The notes under the pieces were generated by a model that was not told the origin of the DNA, ran no database searches, and saw only the letters and a list, made by a program, of their open reading frames with translations. Positions 10,593 through 42,754 of a DNA stretch of 42,754 nt are shown here, piece by piece. Each line of letters opens with the position of its first letter. Position 1 is the stretch's first letter. Origin of the DNA: Candidatus Methanoxibalbensis ujae (GTDB lineage: Archaea > Halobacteriota > Syntropharchaeia > Alkanophagales > Methanospirareceae); NCBI GenBank assembly GCA_026134085.1, contig JAOQIN010000012.1:1-42754 (forward strand). The letters run 5' to 3'. The position numbers and the translations under genes were made by a program.

Positions 10593-10639
10593 ATGAGCCA
10601 TCAGTCCAGTGACGATGCGCCAGCCACAACTGGTGGCTC

Positions 10640-11400
10640 TTCATCTTGAGTATATTTTCAATTCTTCTCATTCTTCTCACTTCCTCAAGATGATTTTTCC
10701 CATGTCAGCCCCCTGTGACTTGAGGAATGATTATAGGGGGATGTTCAATCATGTTGAGCCATCATTCGCAGGAAGAAAGCAGGAAGAAAATCCACATTCA
10801 CACCAATCATTCTTTTGTCAATGATTGCGGTCTCTCATCAAAATCAAACAATAATCTGAGAACTGTGCTTCATCTCTCCCTCCTTTTGATGTGCTCATCT
10901 TATTCTTTTTCTTTTTCGAAAGCGGAGAAGACTTAAACCTATGTATGTGGCTTCATCCCCATTTCTCTCCTGACTGTCCCATTTCTCTCCCGACTTCACC
11001 TCAGGAGGTCCTCATCAAAGCATATTACTCTTCCATCCTTTGGAGGCTGTATCTATCTCTCCGCCTAAACTCGTAATCAGGATCGTTTGATTCTTTCAAT
11101 GTCTTGGTTCTCCTGTATTGGTGTGTTTTATTCTCCTCTCTCAGGATTTGCCCTATTCATTCTATGCCTATTCTATATTCCTCTCTCAATCACATAATCT
11201 CTCAACTTTGAAAGAGCCATTGAAAAGGCAAATCCCCGGCTCAAAGCGACATCAGCATTGGACTTAAGTTTAAATCAATCTTCCGGAACTTTCATTGCTT
11301 GAGCATATGCAAATTTTTACTTCCACTATGTCCCTGCTGTATCCAATTTGAGTTTGTTCCCCTCTTCATTTGTAATTTCACAACATATATCATTTAACTA
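10640..11400 (-). mobile_element. IS630-family transposase relic (subgroup distinct from the adjacent element)
   Basis: Minus-strand fragments SKLRDYVIERGI, ILREENKTHQYRRTKTLKESNDPDYE, PPKDGRVICFDE and WLNMIE; ends approximate. Confidence 0.75.
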
Positions 11401-11414
11401 TGATTTTGAGGCAA

Positions 11415-16800: not shown

Positions 16801-18555
16801 TCACAATTTTCTGCGGCTTATCAGAGCGATCAGAGTGAGTGCGGCGAGAATCGCTGACATCATGACAATTCCGACCGGCGAAAGCACAGGCACCCTCTCA
16901 CGAATTTCATGAATGTTCACTTTGAACACACGTGTTTCTGGGAGGTAGAGGAACGCAGATTTCAAATCATCCTTTGCATATTTGAACGCTTTCTTCTCCT
17001 CAGATGTCGCCGTTCCAGTTTTGCATTTCTTTCTCAGATCAAAGAATCGCTCTGGGAATATGTCTTCCCTCGCTTCAACACGAACTTCATGCCCGCTTGA
17101 CCTTTGAATGAATGTGTATGCGTAGTTCTCAACACTCAAATTCACTATGTCCGTTCCCGCAGGAGGCTCAATTCTCAAATTCTCGCCGCCAAAAATGTAT
17201 TCAAATGTCTGTCTATGCCCCTTTGAGGGGTGAGCGCAGATGACTTCAATGTCTCCTCTCACTGGCCTCTCAAATATTTCAAATATTGAAAATGCGAGCT
17301 GCGTGGCTCTGAACGCCGACGCAACGCAAGGACAGATTTCGCCATCGCCGACCTCCTCAATTGTGATGTTCAAAAGCGTTTCTCCGTCGCAGTCGTAAAT
17401 CTGCAGGACAAATGTTGAAATCTCCCTGTTCGCTGAAATCTCCACCCATTTCACAATATTTTCGTGAGGGCAGAGCGCCCTGCTACCGTTGTATTTGTAT
17501 GTCAGGTTTTCAAGAAGCATCGGAATGTATTTTTTCGTGAAGAAGCCAACGCTCACCATGTTCGCAACGACGACAGGCGTTGAGTTCACGCTCACATTCT
17601 CCACAACCGCTCGCAGTCCAAGCTCTGGATGCATCGTTTTGTTGTCCACGACGGGCAGATGAATGAAACCGAAGCGCACATCCTCAATTGGAATGCCCTT
17701 CCGATGCCTCAGAATGAGTTTTATCTGCTCCGCAAGCGACTCGTGGTCTGCAATCCATTTTTCAAAGTAAGAGGCGTTGAATGTGCCGTGAGATGCGAAG
17801 ACAACTGTCTCGTTCTCCGCCTCAGAAATGAGCTCTGCTGCGTTCTCCGCAAGCGTCTGTGCGAGCAATGAGCTGTTGTCCAACGCATCCGTAAGAACGA
17901 TTTCTGCTGTTGTGTTCACTGGAACCAGTTCATCTTCCTCCGTATGCTTCACTGTGAGCGCAGGCGTCAGATATTCACGGCGAATTATGCATTTTCCTTC
18001 CACTGCGAGGACAGAACGGCGGACAGGCTCGCCTTCAACGAAAGTAAGCACTTCTGACTCTGGAGGCGTTTCTCGAAGGCGTAGAACATATTTTATCTCC
18101 TCAATATGACCGCTGTGCGACGAGATGAACAGAGGAACCGCTACAATTTTCGTGACATTATGCTCGTTCAGCCTGTCAACCGCTATGTTTATCGTCTCAT
18201 CAGGCACAAATTCAAGAAATCCAAGCTCAACAGGATATGGAAGCTCTGAAGCAACTCTGCGAAAAACCTCACGAACAGGCTCGCGCCATGTCTCACTGGG
18301 ACTGCCGTGTGCGATTATGAGGATGCCCACTCCATTTTTCTCACTTATATCTCCTTCACTTCCAGCTGCATCTGCGATTTCGCCACTTGGCGTCTTTGAT
18401 GTTTGCACAGTTTCTGTCTGTGCCTCTGCTTTCTGCATTGCGCCCGGTGCGTGTGACGCTGCTGAAAGTAAAAACTGAGCTGAAAACGAAAAAGGCACTG
18501 ATAAAAGCATTATTAAAACAACAGTTGCCACATTCAGCATCACGCCTCGCATCAT
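16801..18555 (-). CDS. Exported CbiX/sirohydrochlorin-chelatase-like protein with an FmdE-like C-terminal domain and a VPxxxP-type sorting tail
   Basis: Hydrophobic N-terminal signal; GILIIAHGS, ELGFLEF, AVPLFISSHSGH and a second VFASHG; ICPCVASAFRA..AHPSKGH; tail VPVLSPVG-hydrophobic-RRKL. Start uncertain (18570/18555/18540). Confidence 0.75.
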   Translation of the reverse strand: MMRGVMLNVATVVLIMLLSVPFSFSAQFLLSAASHAPGAMQKAEAQTETVQTSKTPSGEIADAAGSEGDISEKNGVGILIIAHGSPSETWREPVREVFRRVASELPYPVELGFLEFVPDETINIAVDRLNEHNVTKIVAVPLFISSHSGHIEEIKYVLRLRETPPESEVLTFVEGEPVRRSVLAVEGKCIIRREYLTPALTVKHTEEDELVPVNTTAEIVLTDALDNSSLLAQTLAENAAELISEAENETVVFASHGTFNASYFEKWIADHESLAEQIKLILRHRKGIPIEDVRFGFIHLPVVDNKTMHPELGLRAVVENVSVNSTPVVVANMVSVGFFTKKYIPMLLENLTYKYNGSRALCPHENIVKWVEISANREISTFVLQIYDCDGETLLNITIEEVGDGEICPCVASAFRATQLAFSIFEIFERPVRGDIEVICAHPSKGHRQTFEYIFGGENLRIEPPAGTDIVNLSVENYAYTFIQRSSGHEVRVEAREDIFPERFFDLRKKCKTGTATSEEKKAFKYAKDDLKSAFLYLPETRVFKVNIHEIRERVPVLSPVGIVMMSAILAALTLIALISRRKL

Positions 18556-19529
18556 ATTCAAAATAATCAAAATTAGAAACTCAAAAATTTTACTCTAAAA
18601 TTTTTAGGAATTTAAGAATTATCCCGAAATTTTTAGATTTTAGCCAGATGCTGAAGATATTGACAGCGCATGTTACAGCGCATGTTCCTCCTATGCGTCG
18701 CATCCATCCGCTGCAAACGCACATGCATCAAGAAGCGATGAATATCTTGGCATCCTCACAGAACCATCGCCCCAATTCACGCTTTATCTCCTCAAAATTC
18801 CTCTCTATATCCTCCACTGTCATCCTGTTACATTCTTCCGCGGATAATTTTCTCAACAGCCTTTCCAAATCTCTCAAAATCCTGCTCATTTCATCCGTTC
18901 TCACTTCTTATCACCTTTCCGCTGCTTCACATGCTCAGATGCCATACAGTGCTGCAAAAAATGGGCGGAGATATCCATTGCATGCATTTTTTTCCCCTCT
19001 ATTATAATGAATTAATTAGATTTGTAAATAATTTTTCCTAAAAAATGTAGATTGAAAATGTAAAATCAAATTTGCATAACAGACATGATCTCAAGTGGAG
19101 CGGATTTATAAAAGAATTTTTGAGATCATCTTACATTAACCTCAGCCTTCTGGGCAGACCGGATGATGTCGGAGCCTCCATGATTGTGGCAGAGGAATCG
19201 CACTCTCGCATGCATTATACACTCTCATTGCATATATTGACACTCTCCAAGATGTTTTAAGATTCACACAAAGCTTCACCCTTGGCTGCCCAAAAGGCTC
19301 TTTTCTTTAAATCTCCGTGCATGTCATTTCAAAACCATTGCATCTCTGCAATTTTTTCATTATGATAAAAAGAAATCATGGATTTCTGCAAAGGGATGAT
19401 GTCGGATTGCTTTGATGATGTTGGATTGCCTGATGAAATTGAAGAAAGAAGTAAGATAGGGCAAGATAAGGCAAGCGGAGGGAGGAGGAAGGAGGATATA
19501 GAAAGAGAAAAACGAAGAGATAAGCACAC

Positions 19530-19790: not shown

Positions 19791-20337
19791 TTACTCCATC
19801 GCCTGAGACGGAAAGGATAACGCAGCTTATGGTATTGGAAGGAGCCATACACTTTCAGAGCTGGAGATATTGGAGGGTTTCAGATTTAAAACAAGGACTG
19901 AAACTCCTACGCTAAGCTTCGGTAACTCACTGCTATACGGTGCTGACTGAAACAACACGCAGCTGAATCCTGCGATAAGCTATTTGCATGAGCCTTTTGA
20001 GCGGAGGTTCTCACTCGCTCTTGACATTGCGGAAGTATTCAAGCCATTCCTCGTTGATCGTGTGATATTCAAGCTTGTGAACATGAACATGCTTTGTGAT
20101 AATGATTTTGTGAGCGATCTGAATGCGTGTTTGCTGAATGAGAGAGGTCGCAGTTTATTGAGGAATGGGGGAGGATGGTATCATATCAGAGGCAAGTTTA
20201 ACGGGACGCTCATGCGTAATGGTATAAACGGAATGGGAGAGGATAGTATCATATCAGAGGCTTATCAGACTGGAGTGCTATAAATGAAACATCTGCTCAG
20301 CACAAAAAAATATAAGCCGTTTGTTATCTGGTGGTAG
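19790..20337 (+). pseudogene. cas1: cas1 (type I-B) remnant
   Basis: [50 protein letters not shown] and C-terminus KHLL..KKYKPFVIWW*; N-terminal half largely deleted. Confidence 0.9.
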
Positions 20338-20926: not shown

Positions 20927-23252
20927 GTTAAACACGGACTATGGTAGGATTGAAAGGTTCTATTTCTTCTTTTTCTTTCGCTCGCTCTTTTTGGTTAAAC
21001 ACGGACTATGGTAGGATTGAAAGACATTTGCATGGTGGAATGGTGATTGGAAATATAGAGTTAAACACGGACTATGGTAGGATTGAAAGATTGAAGGAAC
21101 AAGGAGTGATGTTGCGGTCTCGGCAGGTTAAACACGGACTATGGTAGGATTGAAAGAACGGGTAACATTCACTGAGCTGGAATTCAGCACCTTGTTAAAC
21201 ACGGACTATGGTAGGATTGAAAGGATGGACAGGAGGGAGGGAAATGACTGAATTTGAAGAGTTAAACACGGACTATGGTAGGATTGAAAGTTCTTTTCCT
21301 TCCATATTCCCTCACCTTGATAACTTGTTAAACACGGACTATGGTAGGATTGAAAGAACCCACTGAAAAAACCAAATCCGATTGATTGCAATGATGTTAA
21401 ACACGGACTATGGTAGGATTGAAAGAGAAAGATATACCTCTTTAGCCCTTTCCTTCAAGTCCAGTTAAACACGGACTATGGTAGGATTGAAAGATCTCTG
21501 TGCTTCAACTGTAAATGATCTCGGTGTGTGTTAAACACGGACTATGGTAGGATTGAAAGTGAAAGACTTTCCATAAAACGCATTGACATGCTTGAGGTTA
21601 AACACGGACTATGGTAGGATTGAAAGAAAGATGGGAGGTGATTTGGGATGTGTGATGCACCACATATGTTAAACACGGACTATGGTAGGATTGAAAGGAC
21701 TTTGAGGTCTATAAGATAGAATACTGGTTCATGGGTTAAACACGGACTATGGTAGGATTGAAAGCAGCATACTACGACTGCGACTTGAGCGAAGAGGAAA
21801 GTTAAACACGGACTATGGTAGGATTGAAAGCAAACAGGACATGTTGTGAGTTTGTAAGGAAGTCTATGTTAAACACGGACTATGGTAGGATTGAAAGGCA
21901 AGATGGAGGGGGGAGGTGAATAGATAGGAGGGATGTGGTTAAACACGGACTATGGTAGGATTGAAAGCAACTGTGAAGGATTTTGGTGTGTAAAATCGCT
22001 CTCCGTTAAACACGGACTATGGTAGGATTGAAAGGTCAATCCTTGCCAGACGATAAGAGCAACCCTCTGCGTTAAACACGGACTATGGTAGGATTGAAAG
22101 TAAAAGTTTGTGTGCGCTATCTCCTCTATAATATTACGGTTAAACACGGACTATGGTAGGATTGAAAGAAAAATAAAGGAAGGGGGAATGTCTGTTTTTA
22201 TTGTAGTTAAACACGGACTATGGTAGGATTGAAAGAGTGCCTTTGACGGACACCCGAGCTTGCGTGGGTTAGTTAAACACGGACTATGGTAGGATTGAAA
22301 GAAGACGGTAGAGTGCATTGGCATATCTGGGCTGCCTCGTTAAACACGGACTATGGTAGGATTGAAAGGTAGATAAAACGCAACTACGTTATCTCGCTCT
22401 ACTATGTTAAACACGGACTATGGTAGGATTGAAAGCTTCTTCTTTTCTTAAGACATAAGTTTTGACTGTTTCGTTAAACACGGACTATGGTAGGATTGAA
22501 AGGAAGTTTAACAGCATCAGGTATCACTTAGTGACATCTGTTAAACACGGACTATGGTAGGATTGAAAGCAAGATCATCATGCAGTGATTTCGTATAGGG
22601 ACCAAAGTTAAACACGGACTATGGTAGGATTGAAAGAGTGATCAGTTGGTAATGGGAATAGATCTTGCGAGAGTTAAACACGGACTATGGTAGGATTGAA
22701 AGCATGATGTTCTGTTTACAGTCATTGGTGTTTCTAAGTGTTAAACACGGACTATGGTAGGATTGAAAGTTGAAAAGAGGAGTGGTGAGGTAACATGATT
22801 GATGATGAGTTAAACACGGACTATGGTAGGATTGAAAGTAACGGCAACAGTGATTGAAATGATAAACAGAGAAGGTTAAACACGGACTATGGTAGGATTG
22901 AAAGGATGCCCCACGCATAGAGAGGTGGATCAATTATATCTGTTAAACACGGACTATGGTAGGATTGAAAGAGAAAAGAGAGGAAGTAGAACAGGTAAAG
23001 AAGAACATGTTAAACACGGACTATGGTAGGATTGAAAGGTAGCTGTCTGTGAGGTCGTCTCTATCAACCACGAGTTAAACACGGACTATGGTAGGATTGA
23101 AAGATATCTATGAGAGAATGAGTGGGAAACTTTGATGCATGTTAAACACGGACTATGGTAGGATTGAAAATATTCGCTACATCCTAAAAAGTGAAAGAAA
23201 CCTAAAAAATGAAGGAAACCAAGTCAAACACAGACTAAGGATGGGTTGAAAG
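20927..23252 (+). CRISPR. CRISPR array, 30-bp repeat GTTAAACACGGACTATGGTAGGATTGAAAG: 34 conserved repeats (33 spacers of 35-41 bp) plus one degenerate terminal repeat
   Basis: Repeats counted from 20927 to 23141-23170 (the last ends in A); degenerate copy GTCAAACACAGACTAAGGATGGGTTGAAAG at 23223-23252 has 6 mismatches. Confidence 0.98.
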
Positions 23253-31331: not shown

Positions 31332-31416
31332 AGATATCATTCCGAGCGTATCTGAAGTCCCCCGAAGAGGAATTTGGGCGGAGGCGGTAGCAGAAGCCAG
31401 ATACGCTCTGTTAGGC
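31332..31416 (-). other. attC-like recombination site 3 (85 bp; distal core degenerate)
   Basis: GTTAGGC at 31410-31416; inner arms GAGCGTATCT/AGATACGCTC are a perfect 10-bp inverted repeat; the other core reads AGATATC instead of RYYYAAC; lies 13 bp after the stop of 31430-31941. Confidence 0.75.
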
Positions 31417-31429
31417 GACGTCGCAATGC

Positions 31430-31941
31430 TCATATAACCTCTATTCCTCCTATTTTATATTTAACTACGTATATTGCAAGAAAAACACCGATGAAGAAAT
31501 ACGAAATCCATTCATCTCGAAGCAATCGGGCATAACAGCTCATCTGAAGTTGCTTGGGTTTATCCCCGATTTTTATTTCAATCTTTTTTCCATCTCTGAA
31601 ATCACCTCCCCGAGAAATAGTCTTAACAGAGTTTCGCAAAAAGTTTTCTTCTAGTTCACGAGCTGACAATATCCAATAGCGGTGATTATTAAAACCACAC
31701 TTCGCCAGTAGAAACCACAATCCACACAAGATGATTCCAACAATAGGCATCCCTAGAACACCTTTAAACAATTCGATGTGCTCATGGTTAAGCTGGTTGT
31801 TGCAAGGATAATGCTGTTGGCCACTATTAGGGTATTAAACTTTGACCATAGCAATTCACCTTCATATATCCATAGACTTACAGCTACCTGGTAACCAATT
31901 CTTGCATTATCTATTTCTGGCTGATTTACAGACTCTTTCAT
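31430..31941 (-). pseudogene. Cassette-borne small membrane protein (about 3 TM), split by one frameshift near 31755-31770
   Basis: ORFs 31753-31941 and 31430-31771 join into one ~170 aa protein: YQVAVSLWIYEGELLWSKFNTLIVANSIILA..GIILCGLWF..YWILSARELE..YFFIGVFLAIYVV. Confidence 0.7.
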
Positions 31942-31980
31942 TTTACCTTTCCCATATTCTTATTCTCTTCATGCGATGTC

Positions 31981-32065
31981 GCCTAACGTTCTGCGGGTAT
32001 CTAAAGTCGCCGAAGGCGATTTGGGTGAGGGCTGAAAGCCCGAACCAGATACCCGCTTGTTGTGC
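31981..32065 (-). other. attC-like recombination site 2 (85 bp)
   Basis: GCCTAAC ... GTTGTGC cores; perfect inner arms GCGGGTATCT/AGATACCCGC; two sub-hairpins in the loop; lies 12 bp after the stop of 32078-33010. Confidence 0.85.
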
Positions 32066-32077
32066 GACGTGCCTATA

Positions 32078-33010
32078 CTACCGTTCCCTCCATTCATTGT
32101 CTATTAAAGTTTGGTTTAAGTATTCTTTTTTACGAATTATTTTTCTAAAAGGTGCTAAAGTAAAAGCGTTTCCCAACGCTATTTTCTTATATAATAAGTA
32201 CACAAGTGAACCTATAGGAAAAAATAAATGTGATGTCTGAATACTATCAAAACTCTTTGCCACAAAAATTCCATATATTTCTTTATTTTTGTATTTATTT
32301 TTTGCATCTTCAATATATTGGTTAAGTTTTCTTCTGTCCTCTGCGCTTGGAACAAAATCATGAGAATTTTTGCAGTCATAAACCAGTATAATGTCCTCGT
32401 CAAGCTCAATCTCACCATCTGGATATTCTCCAACAACTTTATGTCCAAACTGTGTAACTTTAAACCCCAATGCCTTAAATAACTCAGCAACTCTGTCTTC
32501 AAATTCTTCATTACCTAGATCTCTATCGATTAATTCCAAAAAGCGCACACCTACGTAATCTCTCCAACTCTTAGCAGGTTTTTCAGCTGTAATCAACTCC
32601 ATCCATTCTTGTGGCGGCTCTTCCCCCAAAATTTTTAAAATCTTTAATAAATCTTCACTTTTTATTGTTGAAAATAGTAGTAGTGAAGGTAACTGTTCTA
32701 AAAGTCTTTTACTGCTCGTCTCTGAAGCTTTAATAGGATCGAAATTGAAATAAGGTTGTCCGGTATTTCTATCATATTTCATCTTTTTAATTTTTAAATA
32801 TACAAATTTTTTATCTCTGTGATCTATATCCCTACCTTTTATCCTCTGTTTAATATAAACTCCCAAACCGGCTAAAGGACAATTTGAAGCTAAAGTCTTC
32901 CACTCCGGCAGGTCAGTATATCGTCTTTTGGGATACGGAGCTTCTTTTGAAGTCTCCCAGTAATCCGGACTCCATGCTGTGCAGAGGATTATTACTCTGT
33001 CTTTATCCAT
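32078..33010 (-). CDS. Cassette-borne Mrr-like PD-(D/E)xK restriction endonuclease with an uncharacterised N-terminal domain
   Basis: EEFEDRVAELFKALGFKV...YPDG...YDCK...LNQYI in the C-terminal half; RBS GGAGAGGGG. Confidence 0.75.
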   Translation of the reverse strand: MDKDRVIILCTAWSPDYWETSKEAPYPKRRYTDLPEWKTLASNCPLAGLGVYIKQRIKGRDIDHRDKKFVYLKIKKMKYDRNTGQPYFNFDPIKASETSSKRLLEQLPSLLLFSTIKSEDLLKILKILGEEPPQEWMELITAEKPAKSWRDYVGVRFLELIDRDLGNEEFEDRVAELFKALGFKVTQFGHKVVGEYPDGEIELDEDIILVYDCKNSHDFVPSAEDRRKLNQYIEDAKNKYKNKEIYGIFVAKSFDSIQTSHLFFPIGSLVYLLYKKIALGNAFTLAPFRKIIRKKEYLNQTLIDNEWRER

Positions 33011-33042
33011 CTTAACACCCCTCTCCTATTTACTTGCATGTC

Positions 33043-33123
33043 GCCTAACGGTTTGGGCATATCCGAAGTTCCGAGCGAGGAATCTGGACAAGCAAAGAGA
33101 AGTCGGATATACACCTGTTAGGC
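33043..33123 (-). other. attC-like recombination site 1 (81 bp)
   Basis: GCCTAAC (33043-33049) and GTTAGGC (33117-33123) cores; inner arms ATATCCGA/TCGGATAT; same layout as the other two sites. Confidence 0.85.
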
Positions 33124-33191
33124 GTGGGCGATGATCCCGAAGTGAGCGAGAGCGAACGGAGAGTCGGGGGGTATGGCTTTTAGTTTTCATT

Positions 33192-34109
33192 TTAAACACA
33201 CTGCATCCTCCCATCGTGCAATATTTTCACGAATTGATTGTGGAGGATTTTAGTTCCCGGTGAAAGATAATATTCTGGCTTTGATATCACCTTACCTGGC
33301 TTATCAGATGCCTTTCCACAATTTTGAGGGTCAAAATATCCTCTTCCGGCTAAAAGTTCTATATCTCCTTTAAAGTTTATATTTTTATCATATTTCAAAT
33401 GGAAGACTATATGTTCATTCGACTTTATTTCTATTTTTTCAGGATTTTTCCACTTAAAAGGAGCAAGATTTGAAGATTCTACTCTGTTAATCGAATCAAG
33501 CAAAACATGCCCAAAGCCATACTTTGATTCTCCACCAAGAATAAGTTCTTGAATTATGTTAAAGTTTTCAATAAAGATTCCCTTATCATTTATAATAACC
33601 TTTTTATCCTCTATTTTTGCATTTTCCTTGATCCAAATGCATCCTGCGATTTTCACATCCTTTAAATCTCCAGTTTCATCCTTAAATCTGTTATTTATGA
33701 ATTCAATTTCATGCAAGCTTTCATCTTTCGCAGTTCCATTGCTGTCTATCGCTGTTGAAATAAGACTTCCTATGAATCTACGCTCAAATTCTGATTTAGT
33801 TATTTCTTCCTTATTATTTCCGTATTTAAGTCCTTCATCTGTATAACGAGGAAAATATATCGTTCTTCCATCATAAAGATAGAAATATGATAATCTAAAA
33901 TTCTCTATAACTTGCCTGCCTATTCTCTTGTAATCGTCTGCCTTAGGTTTTTCGCATAAATACTCTGTTACCCTCTTTGTTATAGCACCCCACAGGTTTC
34001 TTCCGGGAACATAATAGCGAGTGGGTGAAACAACAGAACCTTTGAAAGGTATATATCCTATATGGAGAGGGCTTTTCAACTTAAATACAACATCAACTTT
34101 TTTCCACAT
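33192..34109 (-). CDS. cmr3: Type III-C RAMP, Cmr3/Cas5-group subunit
   Basis: FKLKSPLHIG, YVPGRNLWGA, STAID..TAKDESLHEIE and G-rich loop LGGESKYGFG; last gene of the operon. Confidence 0.7.
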   Translation of the reverse strand: MWKKVDVVFKLKSPLHIGYIPFKGSVVSPTRYYVPGRNLWGAITKRVTEYLCEKPKADDYKRIGRQVIENFRLSYFYLYDGRTIYFPRYTDEGLKYGNNKEEITKSEFERRFIGSLISTAIDSNGTAKDESLHEIEFINNRFKDETGDLKDVKIAGCIWIKENAKIEDKKVIINDKGIFIENFNIIQELILGGESKYGFGHVLLDSINRVESSNLAPFKWKNPEKIEIKSNEHIVFHLKYDKNINFKGDIELLAGRGYFDPQNCGKASDKPGKVISKPEYYLSPGTKILHNQFVKILHDGRMQCV

Positions 34110-34110
34110 C

Positions 34111-34476
34111 TTATTCACCTATTTTTGTGTGATATAGTGCATAGATTAATGTGCGTTCAAGGAGCTTCTTCACAAACAGTAATTTATCTATATCCTGGGC
34201 AATTTCCCTTAACTTCTCACAAAACTTACTGAAATCCTCAGGAAAATCACTCGAATTAGTCAGAAGATATTTTCTTATCTCTGATTCATTTAACAATCTA
34301 ATAAGAATTTTTCTTATGTTCTTCCCTTCCTTGCTTTCAAGCCAGAGAAACATTGCATAAACGCCATCTTCCTGTAAAACTCCAAGAGCCTTTCTTAGAT
34401 TATTTTCAAGATTGGAATCACTGATTTTACTTATCTCCTGAGCGTACTTTATACATTCGTAATCAAGATTGAGCAT
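34111..34476 (-). CDS. cmr5: Type III small subunit Cmr5 (Cas11)
   Basis: Small helical protein KALGVLQEDGVYAMFLWL..KLLERTLIYALYH located between two RAMP genes. Confidence 0.8.
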   Translation of the reverse strand: MLNLDYECIKYAQEISKISDSNLENNLRKALGVLQEDGVYAMFLWLESKEGKNIRKILIRLLNESEIRKYLLTNSSDFPEDFSKFCEKLREIAQDIDKLLFVKKLLERTLIYALYHTKIGE

Positions 34477-35377
34477 TAGTTTCACCTCCTTGAGATTTTA
34501 CTTTTTGTTCTATAGCCAGCTCAATTCTACCAAAACCTCTTGTTCCCATCCCACCTATACCAAGAAGTTTAAAGTATGGTGAAACTGCATTTATTATTTT
34601 ATTAACATCTACGCTCCCATCTCTGTGCTTATCTACACCGATTTCAAATCCGAACACTGTTCCCCGTGGTATTGCTTCGTAGGTGAATAACTTTCCCGCT
34701 TCGGCTGTTCCTGTATCTGAATCTATTTTTACAGAGGTTCTTACTTCAAGATTGTCATTTACTATGTGAGAAAAGAGCTTCTCTGACACGAGAACAATTC
34801 TTTTCACCCATTTATCTATTTCTGAGGGCAGAACTACCTCTTTTCCGTTTTCAGCTTTCTCAACTTTAAGCAATAACCAGCTAAGATTTAGGGGTTTGTC
34901 AGTGTTTATCCCTTTAATTGCATATGCTTCATTGTCAATTTCATCCGGAATCGCTATTTTTTCTCCATTTTTATCTTTTATTTCCCCAAACCAGTACTCA
35001 ATCAGTTCTTTCGTTGTAATCCACACAGTCCCCTGAATTGACGAAACTGGAAAGAAAACTATCTGTCCATCGTAGAATCGCAAAATGCCTTTTTTTGTTT
35101 CGTCGCCAAAAACCAACTTAGCCTTCTCTTCCGCACATTTCTTTTTTTCTTCTTCGTTACTCTTACTTTTACATTCATTATCATTTTCCATCAGATATAC
35201 CGTATAAAACGCCCTTACAACACCTGCAATTGAAGTTCCCGGTACTTTCGGCACATCTGTCGCTGGGTCTCTCACAATCGTATTATCCACTCTTCCAAGT
35301 CTATACCCTCCGGCCCCTATATGTACTGGGTCGAGAGCTCTTGTATAAACCCTTTTTATTCCCGCATCTTCATTCAT
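34463..35377 (-). CDS. cmr4: Type III RAMP Cmr4 (Cas7-group target RNA nuclease)
   Basis: ALDPVHIGAG, GRVDNTIVRD (Asp at the catalytic position), PGTSIAG, LFTYEAIP and IGGMGTRGFG. Confidence 0.9.
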   Translation of the reverse strand: MNEDAGIKRVYTRALDPVHIGAGGYRLGRVDNTIVRDPATDVPKVPGTSIAGVVRAFYTVYLMENDNECKSKSNEEEKKKCAEEKAKLVFGDETKKGILRFYDGQIVFFPVSSIQGTVWITTKELIEYWFGEIKDKNGEKIAIPDEIDNEAYAIKGINTDKPLNLSWLLLKVEKAENGKEVVLPSEIDKWVKRIVLVSEKLFSHIVNDNLEVRTSVKIDSDTGTAEAGKLFTYEAIPRGTVFGFEIGVDKHRDGSVDVNKIINAVSPYFKLLGIGGMGTRGFGRIELAIEQKVKSQGGETNAQS

Positions 35378-38300
35378 ATTCATCAACCCCCTTAACTTTT
35401 ATTATATGTCCGAAAAGAATCATGGTATCAAGTAAAAGTCCATTAATGGCAGAACATACAAGGAAAGACTTAGTTTCGTCTCTTGGTCCATTCCATTTAC
35501 CGCCAAAAGCATCTTTTAAGGTAGCCTCTGCGAATTCTCTAAATATATTTTGTCTATTTTCATCTTCGACACTTCTCCATTCCCTTAATTTTGAAGTAAG
35601 CATTTCTTCAATGAAATTTATCTGTGAGCTTGGGAGATTTGACAATACATCCCACAACTCCAGTATTTCAGAAATTTGGTAGAAATAGTAAGGTCTCCCT
35701 GTAAATAGTTTGTAGTCCTCGCACCCTCTCCTTCCACCTTTATAATATATGCTGTATCTATCAGTCGTTCCTAAAAGCAAATCAAAGTCAAAATATCCCA
35801 GATAGAGGTAGAAGACTTTCCCTTTGGAGATAGAAGATAAATCATCAAGAGAGTATTTTCCGTCTTCTTCTATTGGTTTTGTCGGATAAAAACCATAGTA
35901 TTTGTCATTTCTCATTCCGTTCACGTTCCACCATGGGGTTATTGGCATCTGTTTTTTAAATCCCTCCCCTTCAAGCATTCTGTTTTCTGCATCGAGGAGA
36001 ATATAGAGCGGAAATTTCCTTTTTGCCACGAGTAGTTTAGCGTTCAATGGTAGTTTTCCCAACACTTTCTCAAACCTCTCATTGTAGAGTTTTGTAATCA
36101 ATTCTATAACTTTCATGGAATCCAAAGCTGGAACCATTAAGCGAAGTGATAGCGGAGATTTGTTGATTTCTATTAGGGGGTAGTATTCTTCTGTTTCTAT
36201 ACTATTCTCATCAGGTTTTAATTTCTCATCATAACTTAACTGTAATAAATTTTTATCTGGATCATCCTCCAGAGCAAGATGTTTGAATCCATGTTTTAAT
36301 GCCTCTTTAACAGCTTCTTCCCCTATTTTGTTGTTAAATTTGAATTTTCCAAGAGATTCTATTGTATAGAATTCTCCGTTCTCATTGTGAAAAACGAGGA
36401 GTTTTTGGGGTTCTAAATTATCTATTTGGATTATGTAAGGTGTACACTTCTCTATTCTCCTTCCCTGCTTTAGTTTGGATTTTAAGTCGGTATAATTCAC
36501 AGAAAACTTTATTCTTTTCCATTTGGTGCCATAAATCTTATCCTTTATCTTTTCAATTACTAGATCAAAGAATTCTTCTGTTTCTTGCCATATTCTGTAT
36601 AATCGGGCAGGAGACGGGTTTTGTGTAAAAAGATAAGTTGCTAGATTTTCTTTAGTTAAGCTACTAATTTCTATCCTCTCTTTGATGTTAGTTAAATGTT
36701 TTTCAAGAGTGTTTTTATCCAATCCAATGTTTTCCTCGAAAAATGTATCTAATATTTTTGCAGCAATTTCTCTATCATTATCTTTTACTTTGAAAAATAT
36801 GTCTAAAACTTTATAGATCATTCTCTTTTCAGGGATTAAAATAAATGTAAGTTGCTTTATTTTTTGCTCTAATTCTTTCTTTTCTTTGATCTTCTCGTTT
36901 ATTCTGGCTTTAACCTTGCTGGGATCTTTTGCTTTTTTCATATTCTCAATAGCCTTTTCTAAACTTTCAATCTGTTTTTTTATTTTTTCTTTTAATACAT
37001 CTTGTATTTTGGACAAATTCTCTTTTTCCTTATCCAACCAGTCCTCAAAGCTCTGCGAATAAATAGTTCCAATCATCGTTCCATCAAGCCACTTATCAAG
37101 ATAAAAATTCAGGGAAATCAGAGCGATTCTATTATTTTTATCTGCAGATTCGTCAATCCATATTGTATCTTGCCTGTTTGAAAGCCATTGCAATAGTCTT
37201 CCTTTTCTTCTTTCTTCACAAACATCACATCTTTCCTTTTTCGCATCCTTTGGCCTTATCCCGCAAATAGGACAGACATCTTGTCCTTCGGAAGGTGTGG
37301 CAATTTCAGGATTCTCAAAGGTCTCTACTTCCTTACCTTCAATAAACAGAGTTGGACTCATCTTTGGTATTTTTCTCTTTTCAGCTGCAAATTTTAATTC
37401 ATCAGCGATGATAGTAAGTGTCCCTGAGGCTTTGCTTAAGGTGAAAAACGGCCACAGTTCACTATCGCTTTCTTTATAAATTATTTTCAGCGCCTCTTTT
37501 GCACATTCTTTAGCAAGGTCTTTTGACTCATCAGCCAGATCGGGAAACGTGAAATAAATCCCATTTGTATCTTCATAAACTGCATCTCCTATGGGAATTT
37601 CATCCTCGAATTTCCTCTTTAATTTCTTTTTGATATTTTCAATAATCTCACTCCTTGCCTTAATTTCTGCAATCTTTCTTCCCTTGTTTATGAATTCTAC
37701 CCCATCCCAGCAGATACTAAATATACTCCATTTCAAATTATTAGGATCTGGAGATGCTCCACATATCATCTCCGCTAAAACGGTTTTAAACAGCGATGCT
37801 GTTGAATAGGAGTGATCCCACAGGGTGACATCGTTTGCGGGTATTCTCGTTTCTCCAAGGGTGTGAGAAAATACTGTTTTGAGGTTGTTTATTAGAGATT
37901 CTCTGAAACAACTTAAATCTATCGTTCCCGAGATGTAATTTTTAAATAATCCGATCAAGTTATCTTCTAAATCCTCAAACCTTTTTTGGAGGCAATTTAA
38001 ATCTATTTTCTCTTTTGGATATCCAAAAGGAGATGAGATAATTGTACTTTTTATAGACTGCTTTTTTCTCACTATTCCTTTATCGTCTGCGGAATCCTTT
38101 CGGTCACATCCTTGCAAAAATTTTACAATTTCATCATTTATGTTATAATTGTGATGTTCTGTAATAAGTTTGTAAACATCTGTAACTTTTCCATTTATTT
38201 TTATTTCAAGTTTGTTATGTTTAATAAATCTCACTAAATCGTATTTTAAAAAGCCATCGATTTTTGAGTGAGAAAATCTTTGGGGAATATTCTCAATAGA

Positions 38301-38414
38301 ATTCGTTCCAATAAAATGGGGGTGCAATTTTCCAATATCGTGAAGCAATGCTCCCATTTCTCCGGTTAATATCGCTTCTTTATTGTTTTTAATTTTATCT
38401 AGGCAGTTACTCAT
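35370..38414 (-). CDS. cas10: Type III-C large subunit Cas10 (Csx11-like): HD domain present, Palm GGDD absent
   Basis: LLHDIGK, ETRIPANDVTLWDHS, Zn finger CPIC..CDVC and SPARLYRIW; no GGDD in 1014 aa. Confidence 0.9.
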   Translation of the reverse strand: MSNCLDKIKNNKEAILTGEMGALLHDIGKLHPHFIGTNSIENIPQRFSHSKIDGFLKYDLVRFIKHNKLEIKINGKVTDVYKLITEHHNYNINDEIVKFLQGCDRKDSADDKGIVRKKQSIKSTIISSPFGYPKEKIDLNCLQKRFEDLEDNLIGLFKNYISGTIDLSCFRESLINNLKTVFSHTLGETRIPANDVTLWDHSYSTASLFKTVLAEMICGASPDPNNLKWSIFSICWDGVEFINKGRKIAEIKARSEIIENIKKKLKRKFEDEIPIGDAVYEDTNGIYFTFPDLADESKDLAKECAKEALKIIYKESDSELWPFFTLSKASGTLTIIADELKFAAEKRKIPKMSPTLFIEGKEVETFENPEIATPSEGQDVCPICGIRPKDAKKERCDVCEERRKGRLLQWLSNRQDTIWIDESADKNNRIALISLNFYLDKWLDGTMIGTIYSQSFEDWLDKEKENLSKIQDVLKEKIKKQIESLEKAIENMKKAKDPSKVKARINEKIKEKKELEQKIKQLTFILIPEKRMIYKVLDIFFKVKDNDREIAAKILDTFFEENIGLDKNTLEKHLTNIKERIEISSLTKENLATYLFTQNPSPARLYRIWQETEEFFDLVIEKIKDKIYGTKWKRIKFSVNYTDLKSKLKQGRRIEKCTPYIIQIDNLEPQKLLVFHNENGEFYTIESLGKFKFNNKIGEEAVKEALKHGFKHLALEDDPDKNLLQLSYDEKLKPDENSIETEEYYPLIEINKSPLSLRLMVPALDSMKVIELITKLYNERFEKVLGKLPLNAKLLVAKRKFPLYILLDAENRMLEGEGFKKQMPITPWWNVNGMRNDKYYGFYPTKPIEEDGKYSLDDLSSISKGKVFYLYLGYFDFDLLLGTTDRYSIYYKGGRRGCEDYKLFTGRPYYFYQISEILELWDVLSNLPSSQINFIEEMLTSKLREWRSVEDENRQNIFREFAEATLKDAFGGKWNGPRDETKSFLVCSAINGLLLDTMILFGHIIKVKGVDEYE

Positions 38415-38416
38415 CT

Positions 38417-39334
38417 TTACCCTCCAAATAACTTAATTAATTTATTCTTCAGTTCATCCAATCGAGAGAATGTTTCTTCTTTAATTTTCGTATTAGATTT
38501 TATCCAGAACTTTCCTTCATTCAGTTGTTCTTCAATTACTCCAAAGCCAGATGTTTTCTTTGCCGAGAATCCATAGATATAAAACATCAATTTCAAAGCT
38601 TTAGCAAGAAACATTAAATCCTCTTTAATCTGCTCTTCTTTGAAATCCTTTCCTTTTGGATATGGAACATAGAGAAGGTAAAACTCTCCTTTACTTCCGG
38701 GTTTCACAACTTCAATAGGTATTGGGCTTCTACCTTTTACGGGAGTTCTTGTATCTCTCCTCAAGGGTGTTATTACATCTTTTTCTGCATCGCTTTTAAA
38801 GAAAGTTGGGAAGAAGTAAAGCCTCCCCTTCAGTGCCACATCTTCTCCGGATTCCGAGCCGAAGAGCCTTTTGATAATCTTTTTCTTCTTTTCTTCATCG
38901 TATTCAACCTTTTCAGCAGAAAATCTCAAATGTCCTTTCCATGTTGATGGTCTTACCATCGGAAGTCCAGTGAATTTATCTCTGACAATTGGGTTTTCAA
39001 AGATTCTACCATTGAGAATGTGAAATTCTCCTTCATCTTTGCTTAGATATGGTTTTTTGAGAGTAAAGGAGATTTTTATGAGCACAGAATTTTCAGAGAA
39101 GGTTTGTAAATCCACTGACTTGGGATAAAAGTCATTAATATACTTTTCTTTTGAAAGAATCATATCTTTCTTTTTCCTCCCTACAATTTCTTCTTGTTGC
39201 CAAATAATGCGTTTCTCTCCTACACTTTTTCCTTTTAGTCTTCTCTTGTTTTCTCTTTCCCACTCCTCGAACGAGCTAATCTTGTCTTCATCCACTGGTT
39301 CTAATAAAAGTTTTAGATAATAATCGTGCATCAT
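38417..39334 (-). CDS. cmr6: Type III-C RAMP Cmr6-like subunit
   Basis: ENPIVRDKFTGLPMVRPSTWKGHLR, KGRLYFFPTFF and GFSAKKTSGFG. Confidence 0.75.
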   Translation of the reverse strand: MMHDYYLKLLLEPVDEDKISSFEEWERENKRRLKGKSVGEKRIIWQQEEIVGRKKKDMILSKEKYINDFYPKSVDLQTFSENSVLIKISFTLKKPYLSKDEGEFHILNGRIFENPIVRDKFTGLPMVRPSTWKGHLRFSAEKVEYDEEKKKKIIKRLFGSESGEDVALKGRLYFFPTFFKSDAEKDVITPLRRDTRTPVKGRSPIPIEVVKPGSKGEFYLLYVPYPKGKDFKEEQIKEDLMFLAKALKLMFYIYGFSAKKTSGFGVIEEQLNEGKFWIKSNTKIKEETFSRLDELKNKLIKLFGG

Positions 39335-40410
39335 CTTACTACCCCCAAGATCTCTTTACCCGTTTTTTCTTCTGTTAAAGTGCAACTTTCTAGGCTTTCT
39401 TTATATTCTTCTTTTGAAAACAACTTTTCTTTTAATTTATTTTCCAGTTCCTTCTTTATTTTATGTTTAATACTCTTTTCCACATCGTATCCCCAGACCC
39501 TTACTTCTACCGTTGTGTCGTCGACTTTATAACAGTGAGAGACAAAAATCTTTGAACCCTTTCCCAACTCGCCAAATATCTCATGCCGTTTATTTTTATC
39601 ATCCTCCACCTGTCTTATGGCGTCCCTTATATGAAATGCTATTGGAAGAAAATGGTAATCACTCCAGAGTTTTTTCCAGTTTTCCCAATTATCAATAAAA
39701 CCATAATGATCTGACTGATGTGTCCAAAAAACTTCTTTGTCGATCAAGTTAGATATACCCTTCTTGAATTTAATATGAAACTTGTAAAAGAAGAAGTTAG
39801 CCAAATTAGGTGAATTGATTTTGTTCCCTTTACCCTTTAATTCGGATTTTTTTGGATTTTCATCCTTATAGGGCAAATTGTTTTCAGCAATTTTAATCAC
39901 TCCACTGCCCTGTGATGTTTTTGCTCCTAAGGCACTGTAATCTGCTATTATTTGAAGTATTTTATTTAGTAAAGCCCACTCGTTTTGGGATATTTCTCTT
40001 AGAGGCATAAATTTTAGAATTATATCTCCATCAGCCATTAATCCTTCTACCTCTCGTATTAAGTATTTCTCTCTTTTTCTGATAACTCTCTTTTTTCTCG
40101 TTCCTATTTTAATTTTGAGATTTTTGGGAATAACTGCTAAATTAATAGATTCTATCTCCAGCCTGAACTTTCTTGCCCAACCCATACATCCAAATAATTC
40201 ACAAACATCACAATGATTTCCGTCTTTATCCGGACATCTGTTATCAGAAGTTGAGTCACATGCACTCCCACCTAATCCTCTAACCAAAGCTTCATACCAC
40301 CATCTCAAGCTTCCAAGCATCCCTGTTTCCCGTAATGTTTTGCATTCTCTATTCTCATCTCCTGTCCATATGGGAGTTAAGGGTTTAATCTTGACAATAA
40401 ATTCCCTCAT
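39331..40410 (-). CDS. cmr1: Type III RAMP Cmr1
   Basis: KPLTPIWTG, ETGMLGSLRWWYEALVRGLG, CDVCELFG and LGAKTSQGSG; ATG at 40410 after GGTGGTGA. Confidence 0.9.
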   Translation of the reverse strand: MREFIVKIKPLTPIWTGDENRECKTLRETGMLGSLRWWYEALVRGLGGSACDSTSDNRCPDKDGNHCDVCELFGCMGWARKFRLEIESINLAVIPKNLKIKIGTRKKRVIRKREKYLIREVEGLMADGDIILKFMPLREISQNEWALLNKILQIIADYSALGAKTSQGSGVIKIAENNLPYKDENPKKSELKGKGNKINSPNLANFFFYKFHIKFKKGISNLIDKEVFWTHQSDHYGFIDNWENWKKLWSDYHFLPIAFHIRDAIRQVEDDKNKRHEIFGELGKGSKIFVSHCYKVDDTTVEVRVWGYDVEKSIKHKIKKELENKLKEKLFSKEEYKESLESCTLTEEKTGKEILGVVR

Positions 40411-40444
40411 ATTATCACCACCATAGCCATACACCCCCGATTAC

Positions 40445-40545
40445 GCCTAACTCTGGATATCCGCAGTACTGCATATATCATTCCCTTTTGTATTATATCT
40501 GCAATGCGTATATCCTTCCAATATCCGCAATAGTGCGTATATACA
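40445..40545 (-). other. attI-like site: single GTTAGGC core plus three imperfect ATATCCGCA-n-TGCGTATAT repeats
   Basis: GCCTAAC on the + strand at 40445-40451 with no partner core; repeat units at 40457-40478, 40495-40513 and 40521-40542. Confidence 0.6.
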
Positions 40546-40587
40546 TCCCTCCGAATGAAACTCCTATCTCCTCGATTTTCCTTCCTT

Positions 40588-40651
40588 TCATCCTTTTGCA
40601 CCTCCTCCATTCTCCTTCTCAAACAACCTGTCCACTTTTTATTTTCCCTAT
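40588..40651 (-). pseudogene. Possible last ~20 codons of an integron-integrase-like recombinase
   Basis: ATA GGG AAA ATA AAA AGT / G GAC AGG TTG TTT...TGA reads IGKIKS-(PL deleted)-DRLFEKENGGGAKG*, resembling the IxSPLD C-terminal motif; lies directly upstream of the attI-like site. Confidence 0.45.
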
Positions 40652-40752
40652 AAGGTGTATTATCTGATTTTTAGAGCGGGAAACTAATATATATACATAT
40701 TGCTTATTTAAATAAATTTAAAAAACAAAGCAATTGGTCCGGGGTGCACTCT

Positions 40753-41018
40753 TATTAGTATACAACAAGAAACAGTATGTGCCCACCACCTCTCACTGAG
40801 GGGCATCCAGTGAGGCTCATCGGTGCTTCATCGGGGAGACTTGCCTCAGCCTTCCCAGATTAAAAGAGATGCTGGCAGAGGAGGAATGGAAGGATGTAGA
40901 TTGACGATGGTTTTGGAAGAGGTTATCTCATACAGTGATGCTCCACATCAAGGGCTGAATGGTCTATCTCCAAATGTAAAAGGAGGCTGATGTGTGTGGC
41001 ATCTGGTTGACTATAATA
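40753..41018. mobile_element. Possible MITE/IS remnant
   Basis: Imperfect inverted ends TATTAGTATACAACAAGA and TCTGGTTGACTATAATA; internal hairpin CTCACTG..CAGTGAG. Confidence 0.25.
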
Positions 41019-41278
41019 CAGTCTGACAATTTTTCTTCATCTCAATTTCGTCCACATTTACCCCTGATTTTGATTAGAAATTATCGTATTTGACCGAGAA
41101 CCTATACTTTTTTAATCTGCTCTGTACCATGAGGATATCGCTCGCAAATCTCAAGTGCTTCTTTTAACACGCTCATCGCCTTGCTGCATTCCTTGCTGTA
41201 TTCCTGAATCCCGCTATATAAAATCCCCGTAAGGCATCTCGCCTGCTCTATCTCTCCGGGTATTGCTTCAAGCATCCA

Positions 41279-42312
41279 TAGTGCATTGACAACTTAATTT
41301 GCTTATATTAGAAAAAGAGAAGCACATAAACATTGTATGCCTGCAAAAAGTATCATGTTTACTTGAGAGATGAGGAAAGAGAATATCCTGAAAGAGTCAG
41401 CACTGGAACTAACAAAGCCCGAATAACCAAAGAATTCTGCTGCTTGCAGATGCAAAGGACAGGGAAAAACAATCAAGCTTTAGGAGTTTGCATGGTAGCA
41501 AAGACAGGAGAACGCTTCGTTGAGGACGGATCAGGAGCATTGAACGAGACATCCCGGCAAAAAACCAACAGGAAGAGATGAGGTAATGCTGACAGCAATT
41601 GCATTCAGAGACCCCCGGAAGGTGAACTATAAGTTGGAAGATAAACCCGGAACCCGGAATTGTTGATTCAATATCAAGGGAAACGGTAAGAAAAACATTA
41701 AAAAACGAAATTAAGCCATGGCTAAGGAAACATGGCTAAGGAAACAGTTGTGGAGAAAATGTGAGTTTATTGCAAGGATTGAGGATATATATGAGAACTA
41801 CGATCAAAAGAAACCTTATGCGTTGATGAAAGACCCTTCAAGTGGAAGATTTTATTCAACCAATTCCAGTGAAAAAAAGGATTTCCAGAGAGACAAGATT
41901 ACCAAGCGGAGAGGAGTATGCTGTCATTGCTTTCTGATAGGATGGCGTTATAAGGGAGAGAAGAACTAAATATTATGCAGAATTCATGAAAAATGTTGCA
42001 GATAGATCTGAAATCATAAGGGTTGTTCAGGATCTCAACACTCACACCCATGCTTCCTTTTACGAGAGGAACCAGAAGAGGCAGGATACCTGTGTAAGAA
42101 GATTGAATTCCATTACACCCCAAAGAAGCTGGTTGAACTTGGCAGAGATTCTCAGCATGTCTGGATCGCAGGACAGGAGATACGGGAATCCTTGAACGTG
42201 AGATAAAAGCTTAGAAGATCGGAATGCAAAAAGGGTTAAGGTTAAGTGGTGCTTCACAACCGGAGATGTAATAGAGAAGCCGAGAAGGCATTATTCTAAA
42301 ACCAGTGCACTA
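41279..42312 (+). mobile_element. IS630-family element with pseudogenised transposase
   Basis: KKYHVYLRDEER, EFIARIEDIY, CVDERP, IRVVQDLNTH..ASFYE, EFHYT..SWLNLAEI and VKWCFTT; terminal IRs TAGTGCATTG and CAGTGCACTA with TA ends. Confidence 0.88.
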
Positions 42313-42451
42313 GTTTTTCTCTTTCCTCTGTTTTCCTTCACTTTTTATATTCTTCTCCATTTGGCATTTCTACTTCTCACTCAATTACAATAAAAAGAAA
42401 GAAAAAAAGAGAAAAAACAAATAAAGTAGTTATCCCCTCATTTTTTTATAG

Positions 42452-42754
42452 TTATACTCTTCTTATACATATCACAGCGATTACCGAAAGCAATCCTGCT
42501 AGCGCTATCAATCCGATTGGTGTCAGTGCTGGAACTGCTGGTGGCGGAGTTGGTCTTGGTGGAGGAGCTGCCTTTTGCAAGGTAAGCAGAGCCCACTCTG
42601 TGCACAGGATTGGGTCTCCCCACAAGCAACCTGTCCAGGATCCATTATCGTTTTGCTGAGCTACTATGGCGTCCTCAAATTCAGCTTGCCAGTCATATCC
42701 GCATATATCATGGATATCAAGCGATGTGAGCCCCTTCATCGTGGTATACATTGC
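42452..42754 (-). CDS. C-terminal part (runs off the window) of a surface protein with a prenyltransferase-like QxxxGSW repeat and a VPxxxP-type sorting tail
   Basis: QQNDNGSW..TEWALLTL, a Pro-rich linker and VPALTPIGLIALAGLLSVIAVICIRRV. Confidence 0.75.
   Translation of the reverse strand, partial: AMYTTMKGLTSLDIHDICGYDWQAEFEDAIVAQQNDNGSWTGCLWGDPILCTEWALLTLQKAAPPPRPTPPPAVPALTPIGLIALAGLLSVIAVICIRRV

Follow-up and report, generated by a model that had tools for sequence, protein, structure and literature searches.

Integron cassettes are usually viewed as one small promoterless gene. The integrons described in Archaea (Ghaly et al., 2022, Sci Adv, PMC9668308) are, as far as the main text of that report goes, arrays that for the most part have no integrase, and their attI directly follows intI; the IntI proteins are said there to have the IntI-specific additional domain, attC sites were joined if <4 kb apart, and up to 107 attCs were spread over many contigs of one metagenome-assembled genome (MAG). 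Phage-defence cassettes of bacterial integrons (BRiCs) are, in the portion of the preprint covered, promoterless and of one or two genes (bioRxiv 10.1101/2024.07.02.601719), and Csa3 cassettes provide a case, according to the parts of the paper covered, of a CRISPR-associated gene (clustered regularly interspaced short palindromic repeats) in integron cassettes (Ghaly et al., 2023, iScience, PMC10661359). Here we analyse 42,754 nt of contig JAOQIN010000012.1 (assembly GCA_026134085.1; positions 1 to 42,754, hereafter the window) from the methane-cycling archaeon Candidatus Methanoxibalbensis ujae, which contain a six-gene type III-C CRISPR effector operon, the cmr operon. In our analysis the 7402 nt from 40450 to 33049 on the minus strand are likely to be one cassette of an integron-like system, the first behind an attI, the recombinase gene having been deleted to ~65 nt. 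This reading is carried by the anatomy of the block, its cognate ends, an attI whose conservation breaks at GTT, a diverged second copy and variable neighbours, all of which are observed. What is new, in a reading that is supported, is a cassette of unusual size, with six CRISPR effector genes, in an integron-like system with a non-classical recombinase. No CRISPR effector operon described as a cassette was found in the full-text literature, supplements and subscription journals being outside the scope of the search; the word CRISPR is absent from the main text of PMC9668308 (its supplements likewise outside the scope) and has 0 occurrences in the covered text of bioRxiv 10.1101/2024.07.02.601719.

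The locus resembles the arrays of PMC9668308, as its main text presents them, in short open reading frames (ORFs) of one orientation with folded attCs between them, in an attI downstream of the integrase gene and in most arrays being integrase-less; its attC sites are likewise spread over the contigs of one MAG, 52 in the host genome against at most 107 in that report. Integrons in Archaea were already on record, a correction to the first-pass annotation of this DNA, which knew of no described case of a CRISPR module mobilized by an integron in an archaeon. Unlike the archaeal IntIs as portrayed in that main text, the recombinase beside attI in the lineage of the window is without the IntI-specific domain. 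With the BRiCs, as far as the covered preprint text describes them, the block shares a defence cargo, in its own case probably promoterless, and non-integron homologues that keep the coding sequence without an attC (compare the locus L003 below), and it differs from them in comprising six genes in 7.4 kb, in encoding an RNA-guided effector that needs CRISPR RNA (crRNA) and Cas6 from outside, and in its archaeal host. The Csa3 cassette, unlike the cmr block, is a single regulator gene (COG3415) with no effector complex, to go by the covered parts of PMC10661359.

Read along the minus strand, the 7402 nt unit consists of a TTAGGC half-core, a leader, the III-C operon, a degenerate attC-like segment that we call 'ext' and an attC hairpin of its own, and two small cassettes follow. 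It begins in the core GTTAGGC (40445..40451), where crossover would take place at G|TTAGGC, so that the cassette would start at 40450; the sequence 40451->40425 is GTTAGGCGTAATCGGGGGTGTATGGCT. The 34 nt leader (40411..40444) is composed of a distal stem arm, TCGGGGGTGTATGGCT (40440->40425), and a Shine–Dalgarno-like stretch, GGTGGTGAT, preceding the cmr1 ATG at 40410, 34 nt past the core. To judge from its sequence, the leader holds a ribosome-binding stretch only and is probably too short for a promoter. At the opposite end, the cmr3 stop at 33192 is followed by AGCCATACCCCCCGA (33178->33164), 39 nt, ACGCCTAAC and a hairpin leading to a further GTTAGGC (33049->33043). The segment between the cmr3 stop and the R'' box is ext (33124..33179, minus strand), whose distal arm AGCCATACCCCCCGA is complementary to the leader arm 40440->40425, the leader pairing with 33164-33179; ext-related segments also adjoin attC sites on contigs C8 and C10 of the host genome and in the related loci L005, L012 and L017. 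The attC of the cmr cassette (33043..33123, minus strand) has the boxes R'' GCCTAAC (33123->33117) and R' GTTAGGC (33049->33043), folds, and matches our attC profile with an nhmmer E value of 1.5e-15; the scan with this profile found no attC-like match inside 33125-40444. A TTRRRY half-core at the start, an own attC at the end and no internal attC fit the cassette form. The core at 40451-40445, 34 bp before the cmr1 ATG, and the attC-like hairpin after cmr3 were all found where the first-pass annotation had put them.

The same annotation had described the two ends, 7.3 kb apart, as complementary, and the pairing proved to be 9/9 in its outer part and 15/16, with a one-base indel, in its inner part. 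When the 7 nt core was excluded, the cassette start aligned with its own attC flank with a score of 25, against a best score of 12 with the 31 other sites of the genome; the cmr attC flank reached at most 18 with 32 other cassette starts, and the 99th percentile of non-cognate start/flank pairs (n=558) was 20. The end-to-end pairing is thus significant, beyond what chance provides, and clear for the cmr cassette. Joined in silico, the ends fold at -32.5 kcal/mol, compared with -21.4 +/- 3.1 kcal/mol for shuffled sequences (z = -3.5) and -23.6 kcal/mol for the same ends in their present chromosomal context, and the junction forms a single composite hairpin of a distal stem, a multiloop with the 39 nt insert, a box stem and a second stem, which is the extended attC-type stem that had been predicted. 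A gapless pattern search (<=3 mismatches) for the distal arm did not recover its partner, because of the one-base indel, and the 25 longest of 138 inverted-repeat pairs listed are chance-like pairs of the AT-rich block and do not include the end pair. GTTAGGC is present five times in the window against 2.39 expected, a count that 11 of 100 shuffles reach and that is not significant alone; all five copies fall in 31.4-40.5 kb.

On the minus strand from 40410 to 33192, the operon consists of six abutting or overlapping ORFs in the order cmr1–cmr6–cas10c–cmr4–cmr5–cmr3: cmr1 (39331..40410; TIGR01894, 84 bits; PADLOC Cmr1), cmr6 (38417..39334; PADLOC Cmr6, 206 bits), cas10c or csx11 (35370..38414; TIGR02682, 822 bits; PADLOC Cas10c CAS-III-C, 853 bits), cmr4 (34463..35386; TIGR02580, 118 bits; PADLOC Cmr4, 191 bits), cmr5 for the small subunit (34111..34485; PADLOC Cmr5 CAS-III-C, 125-130 bits) and cmr3 (33192..34118; PADLOC Cmr3, 283 bits). 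PADLOC identities for all six genes, joined by TIGRFAM matches for cmr1, cas10c and cmr4, bear out the type III-C effector operon of the first-pass annotation. A motif scan of Cas10c showed HD at residue 25 and neither GGDD nor GGDE, and by gene set, Cas10c family and motifs the operon is a complete type III-C effector module. The order cmr1-cmr6-cas10-cmr4-cmr5-cmr3 is reportedly typical of what is classified as type III-C. The operon is like other III-C loci in its gene set, its order and a Cas10c/Csx11 with HD and without GGDD, and unlike ordinary ones in being framed by a core and an attC, in having a 34 nt leader in place of a promoter region and in the replacement of the last ~20 residues of Cmr3; the codons concerned (33251->33192) are without homology to other Cmr3 proteins. 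The block is of accessory nature, as seen from a Cas10c homologue present in only 3 of 60 related genomes and from a drop in G+C to 0.31-0.38 over 32-40 kb, where the core genes of 25-31 kb have 0.49-0.51, so that the reported AT-richness relative to host genes was correct. The same contig holds archaeal core genes (GatE, RNase P p30, an ArcTGT-type transglycosylase, Cbf5 and F430-synthesis genes).

Immediately upstream of the core is an attI-like site (40452..40587, minus strand) made up of three inverted-repeat units of the type ATATACGC..GCGGATAT, the last of which abuts the core, and beyond it the 3' remnant of a Xer/IntI-like tyrosine recombinase gene (40588..40652, minus strand), namely its last ~20 codons with a 5 nt deletion, which aligns to positions 213-381 of the related metagenome contig L025. 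Of 61 related genomes, 35 also have these ~200 nt upstream of the core (40452-40652), among them 29 of the 36 members of the same family; in 10 relatives, at 13 places in all, the platform starts within the 3' end of a recombinase gene that runs in the same direction. GTT stands at the platform junction in 14 of 15 aligned attI sites, with different first cassettes following, and in 13 relatives identity is 68% over the 40 nt that lead up to the core and 30-35% over the 40 nt that follow it. These comparisons indicate that the platform behaves as an attI and that the cmr operon occupies the position of first cassette. In L025, VSNKDIEKIKSPLDRLFEKENGGGAKG and a stop at the start of the platform correspond to the C-termini of intact recombinases in relatives, the last ~26 codons being kept; the same platform is followed by GTTATCG and by a NucS-like cassette with its own attC. 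Over 1-12535, L025 has a hisF 3' end, a truncated recombinase stub, attI, the NucS-like cassette and attC in this order, and after the attC come at least 11 kb that are attC-free and hold a 417 aa gene of no assigned family, a 107 aa gene, a Cas7b-like gene and a diverged III-C operon, a block that may be a second, larger cas cassette. A second attI-like site of the host genome, with the core GTTATCT, is located at 60000-62180 of contig C1; its first cassette, of ~2 kb, has two genes (442 aa and 220 aa) and a start that agrees with the flank of the cassette's attC in 13 of 14 bases.

An attC profile built from five sites, iterated with nhmmer and run against the contigs of the host genome, returned 52 attC-like sites on 20 contigs, in arrays between ORFs of one orientation and with gaps mostly of 0.2-2.9 kb; on contig C59, for instance, the ORFs between six such sites all have the same direction. 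The sites have RYYYAAC ... GTTRRRY boxes around an imperfect hairpin that folds into a box (R) stem, an internal loop, a second (L) stem of 9-12 bp and a branched tip, and it is the structure that is kept over the sequence. Thus, 28 distinct 5' arms are found among 32 sites, and despite this divergence the stems of the sites themselves pair at 8.69 of 10 positions compared with 7.26 in chimeras, with at least 9 paired positions in 21 of the 32 own sites as against 19% of chimeras. The strand of the sites was taken solely from ORF orientation and from the side of attI and the recombinase. A crude scanner for box pairs and folds found 0 of the 3 window sites in its strict form and 1 of 3 in its relaxed form, gave a false match in the cmr1 of L042, and was not used for conclusions. 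Gaps of 7.5 and 4.2 kb separate consecutive attC-like sites at 33771-41294 of contig C23 and at 133-4382 of contig C27, and could be further large cassettes or the result of missed sites; the ends of the C23 block, at 14, gave no cognate score.

The comparison covered 42 related loci encoding a Cas10c relative. One of them, L012, a metagenome contig of 7565 nt, has six intact ORFs with ~84% nucleotide identity to the window operon, the leader of the window behind a GTTATGC core, the non-ancestral cmr3 end, ext and an attC with GTTAGAC as its last box. The two sequences are similar over window positions 40467->33045, and this similarity ends inside the downstream core (within GTTAG) and 16 nt beyond the upstream core, in a hairpin arm; the other 150 and 70 nt of L012 have no counterpart in the window or the host genome, and upstream it has an attC-like hairpin instead of attI. 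A homologous block with other neighbours and with similarity ending at the cores, which the first-pass annotation had asked for, thus exists, L012 being the single independent case of the same unit in another context, and no homologous operon among the related loci runs past both cores into identical flanks. In L017, the sequence from cas10c to attC is 98.4% identical to the window, and past the attC comes directly the distal flank of the array, where identity is only 78%; the window's cassettes 2 and 3 are missing. Positions 2900-3010 of L017 form a hybrid attC, with the 5' arm and loop of 33043-33123 and the 3' arm and flank of 31336-31416, switching at ..ACTTC|AGATAC...

The operon is also found outside cassettes. 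L003, a MAG assigned to Archaeoglobales by its record, is 92.8% identical to the window only over 40410->33252, a stretch that opens with the ATG and breaks off 60 nt short of the cmr3 stop; the region upstream is AT-rich and peculiar to L003, and an attC is lacking. The homology of L003, L005, L023 and L032 to the window cmr3 stops at 33251-33253, and the Cmr3 proteins of L003, L005, L004 and L007 end in ..NWDGT(L/I).. or ..EWNGI.., motifs missing in the window, L012 and L017; from the stop in homology and the missing end motif it follows that the 3' end of the cassette form is derived. L005, a MAG recorded as 'bacterium', has an ext-plus-attC of the window family one gene downstream of its III-C operon: over 6750-7640, an orphan GTTAGGT after the operon is followed by a small gene (DNA-glycosylase-like by eye only) and then by the ext-plus-attC. 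In L007 (Paludibacteraceae), CRISPR-like direct repeats, ..TTTTAATCGCACCAGAAGGAATTGAAAT.., are located just upstream of the operon (7700-7900) and a related repeat copy, ..TTCATCGCACCATAAAGAATTGAAAG.., downstream of it (15050-15130), an ordinary array-linked context.

The observations that weigh against this reading begin with the recombinase. The host genome, 89% complete, has no intact recombinase gene, its traces being a frameshifted C-terminal remnant of ~240 nt on contig C7 (15617-15860) and the ~65 nt stub of the window, and a tblastn search of the window with the recombinases of relatives, at E up to 100, yielded noise apart from the short ..GKIKS.. remnant. The C7 remnant adjoins a cluster of three attC-like sites (16978-18748). 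The intact recombinases of relatives, of 346-362 residues, pass NF040815 ('tyrosine recombinase/integron integrase', archaeal XerA) with 253-255 bits at a cut-off of 220, and score 226-243 bits in two stretches on TIGR02249, below the cut-off of 265, above which no match was found in 61 genomes. With XerA (PDB 4a8e and 5hxy) the alignment runs end to end (160 and 150 bits), and with VchIntIA (PDB 2a3v) it falls into two pieces (157 bits) in which 25 residues stand opposite 67, so that, ~42 residues being short, the IntI-specific domain is missing. The recombinase thus resembles XerA in its end-to-end alignment, has an extra N-terminal part of ~70 residues and, beside VchIntIA, is ~42 residues short at the IntI-specific domain; unlike a XerA acting at a dif site, it adjoins attI and cassette arrays, where its activity remains putative. 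The IntI integrase of the classical integron is therefore lacking, and the recombinase is XerA-like. Of the first-pass reading of a CRISPR module mobilized by integron recombination in an archaeon, the cassette anatomy and context are supported; the recombinase is XerA-like without the IntI domain and absent from the host genome, and the mobilization itself is putative.

Further observations of this kind concern the sites, the related loci and the sequencing runs. Classical attC sites have their recombining bottom strand marked by extrahelical bases, together with an unpaired spacer that is roughly symmetric. The internal-loop spacer of the present family would depart from this, being lopsided with 4-5 nt in one arm and 0-2 nt in the other; the last site of the array is without R', and the upstream site of L012 without a recognizable R''. 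Across the genome the cognate signal is weak in what is a crude test (median 12 versus 11; the 99th percentile is attained by 2 of 18 adjacent pairs). The cassette form is present in only 2 of the 42 related loci, L012 and L017, and the genomes G005 and G027, of the same family, have the operon without an attC at its ends. The junction of L017 lies at the boundary between the attC loop and the 3' arm and not at G|TT, and is better explained by homologous or microhomology recombination. The operon is a mosaic, with identity ranging from 77 to 98% between the window and L003 and from 60 to 95% between the window and L012: at 38.3-37.9 kb and at either end of the block the window resembles L012 more than L003, and in the middle of cmr1 identity is ~60% to L012, whereas to L003 it is 77% (40.1-39.7 kb) to 92% (39.7-39.3 kb). 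Homologous recombination among operon variants therefore also shapes the operon. Lastly, four public DNA runs, stored as contigs and containing 65-96% of sampled words, show no excision joint 40451/33049 among the joints listed, and no excision circle or empty site was seen in them; none of the 20 run records that contain the stretch is an RNA run. Joints 31413/31418->40493, 31414-31426->31975-31979, 32061->33107 and 33078->31395 do occur, all of them in repeated attC/attI sequence and with sides of 20-26 letters or unknown letters between; they could belong to the arrays of other organisms and nothing is concluded from them.

The alternative that survives best is that a III-C operon was put by homologous or illegitimate recombination into the frame of a small cassette that already stood in a decayed array without integrase and has never travelled as a 7.4 kb unit, the differences between contigs arising only from homologous recombination between repeated attC sequences. 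That the homology of L003 begins exactly at the ATG and stops inside cmr3 is in keeping with such a graft, as are the mosaic identity along the operon, the junction of L017 in the attC loop rather than in the core, the absence of an integrase from the host genome and the terminal site without R'. We nevertheless consider it unlikely. L012, at ~84% identity, has the same graft junctions, the same leader and the same attC within different flanks, and its similarity ends inside a core; its presence in another context implies that the finished unit changed context at the cores at least once. Moreover, the cmr block abuts attI exactly where relatives hold other first cassettes, and its two ends make a cognate stem.

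An error of assembly, in which the operon would have been joined to the attI and the attC array of other loci or organisms by repeat collapse, is very improbable. Word depth in the attI bin (40409-40775) is 3495 in run X3 and 831 in run X4, compared with ~80-150 and 20-60, respectively, in most operon bins, and this excess in two runs makes a misjoin of the window contig at the attI repeat conceivable; the many short joints at attC sites point the same way, and so does the end of the contig, the last 77 nt of which recur unchanged at the ends of contigs C74 and C47 and mark an assembly branch point. Run X1, by contrast, has even depth over attI, operon and flanks (212-383 in most bins), both types of junction recur in independent contigs (both ends in L012, the 3' end in L017), and the array runs on into archaeal core genes on the same contig. 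A chance resemblance, in which GTTAGGC and the inverted repeat would have arisen by coincidence and the hairpins would be ordinary terminators or REP-like repeats with no part in recombination, can be dismissed in spite of the GTTAGGC count (11 of 100 shuffles reach 5) and the many weak inverted repeats of the AT-rich block, given 52 related sites arrayed between single-orientation ORFs, their linkage, in relatives, with a recombinase gene and with a conserved attI, cassette content that varies among related contigs and a cognate score above the 99th percentile.

Our current working hypothesis for the cassette is that it would be excised as a circle closed at G|TTAGGC, and that its attC would recombine with attI or with another attC. 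The catalyst may be the Xer-like recombinase encoded beside attI in relatives, acting formerly or in trans. The cassette would be transcribed from upstream of attI, since the leader appears too short for a promoter and the recombinase gene of relatives is co-directional with the cassettes. There is no cas6 or adaptation gene in the block (40450->33049), and the Cas6 gene of the host genome is on contig C78, outside the window. The effector complex might therefore be loaded with crRNAs from resident arrays, for example one 10 kb away, made by the Cas6 of C78. That array (20927..23170, plus strand; ~34 repeats with a period of ~67 and the repeat end ATTGAAAG) is a possible crRNA source for the cmr cassette. 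Beside it lies a cas1 remnant (19909-20163) with an in-frame TGA, and the window showed no adaptation gene in intact form. As to its origin, the cassette could have arisen when a III-C operon of the ordinary kind was set into a cassette frame, with graft junctions at the ATG and, at the other end, 60 nt short of the cmr3 stop. More broadly, we would give an even chance to the proposition that an integron-like system with a short XerA-type recombinase moves whole type III effector complexes as cassettes of more than 7 kb, which plug into resident arrays, and that L003 together with the window and L012 keep the junctions of the capture.

It is interesting to speculate on what such cassettes would entail. 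Shuffling of type III effector modules is well known, and if our reading is correct it would gain a concrete mechanism, in which CRISPR interference modules are exchangeable by site-specific recombination, independently of arrays and adaptation genes; operons, too, would be movable by integron-like systems. The cassette form and the 93% identical non-cassette operon offer defined junctions for studying the origin of a cassette, and L003, paired with the window and L012, would capture the birth of a cassette in a way seldom seen in nature. A recombinase beside attI that is without the domain held necessary for integron recombination provides a test case for the recognition of folded attCs. Multigene cassettes of ~7.4 kb would be overlooked by the very design of standard searches, because attCs are joined only when <4 kb apart, at least by the rule in the main text of PMC9668308.

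The two small cassettes that follow the cmr cassette are also on the minus strand. Cassette 2 (32066..33042) has an ORF of 310 aa (33010->32078) with no family match, and its attC (31981..32065) has R'' GCACAAC and R' GTTAGGC, an nhmmer E value of 4.6e-14 and a fold of -25 kcal/mol. Cassette 3 (31417..31980) has an ORF of 113 aa (31771->31430) with a weak 8xMP membrane-protein match. The terminal attC-like site (31336..31416, minus strand) has R'' GCCTAAC, an 11 bp stem and GATATCT in the place of R'. The 10 nt sequence ATATCATTCC is present at both outer edges of the array; as a target duplication of the array, this direct repeat (31339-31348 and 40477-40486, plus strand) was rejected as a misfit with the hairpin 40452-40519. 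Beyond the recombinase remnant, the window (40660-42754) is AT-rich, with short broken ORFs (41333-41581 and 41718-41969) that gave no family matches, and within this region 40802-40856 is a 98% match to contig C17.

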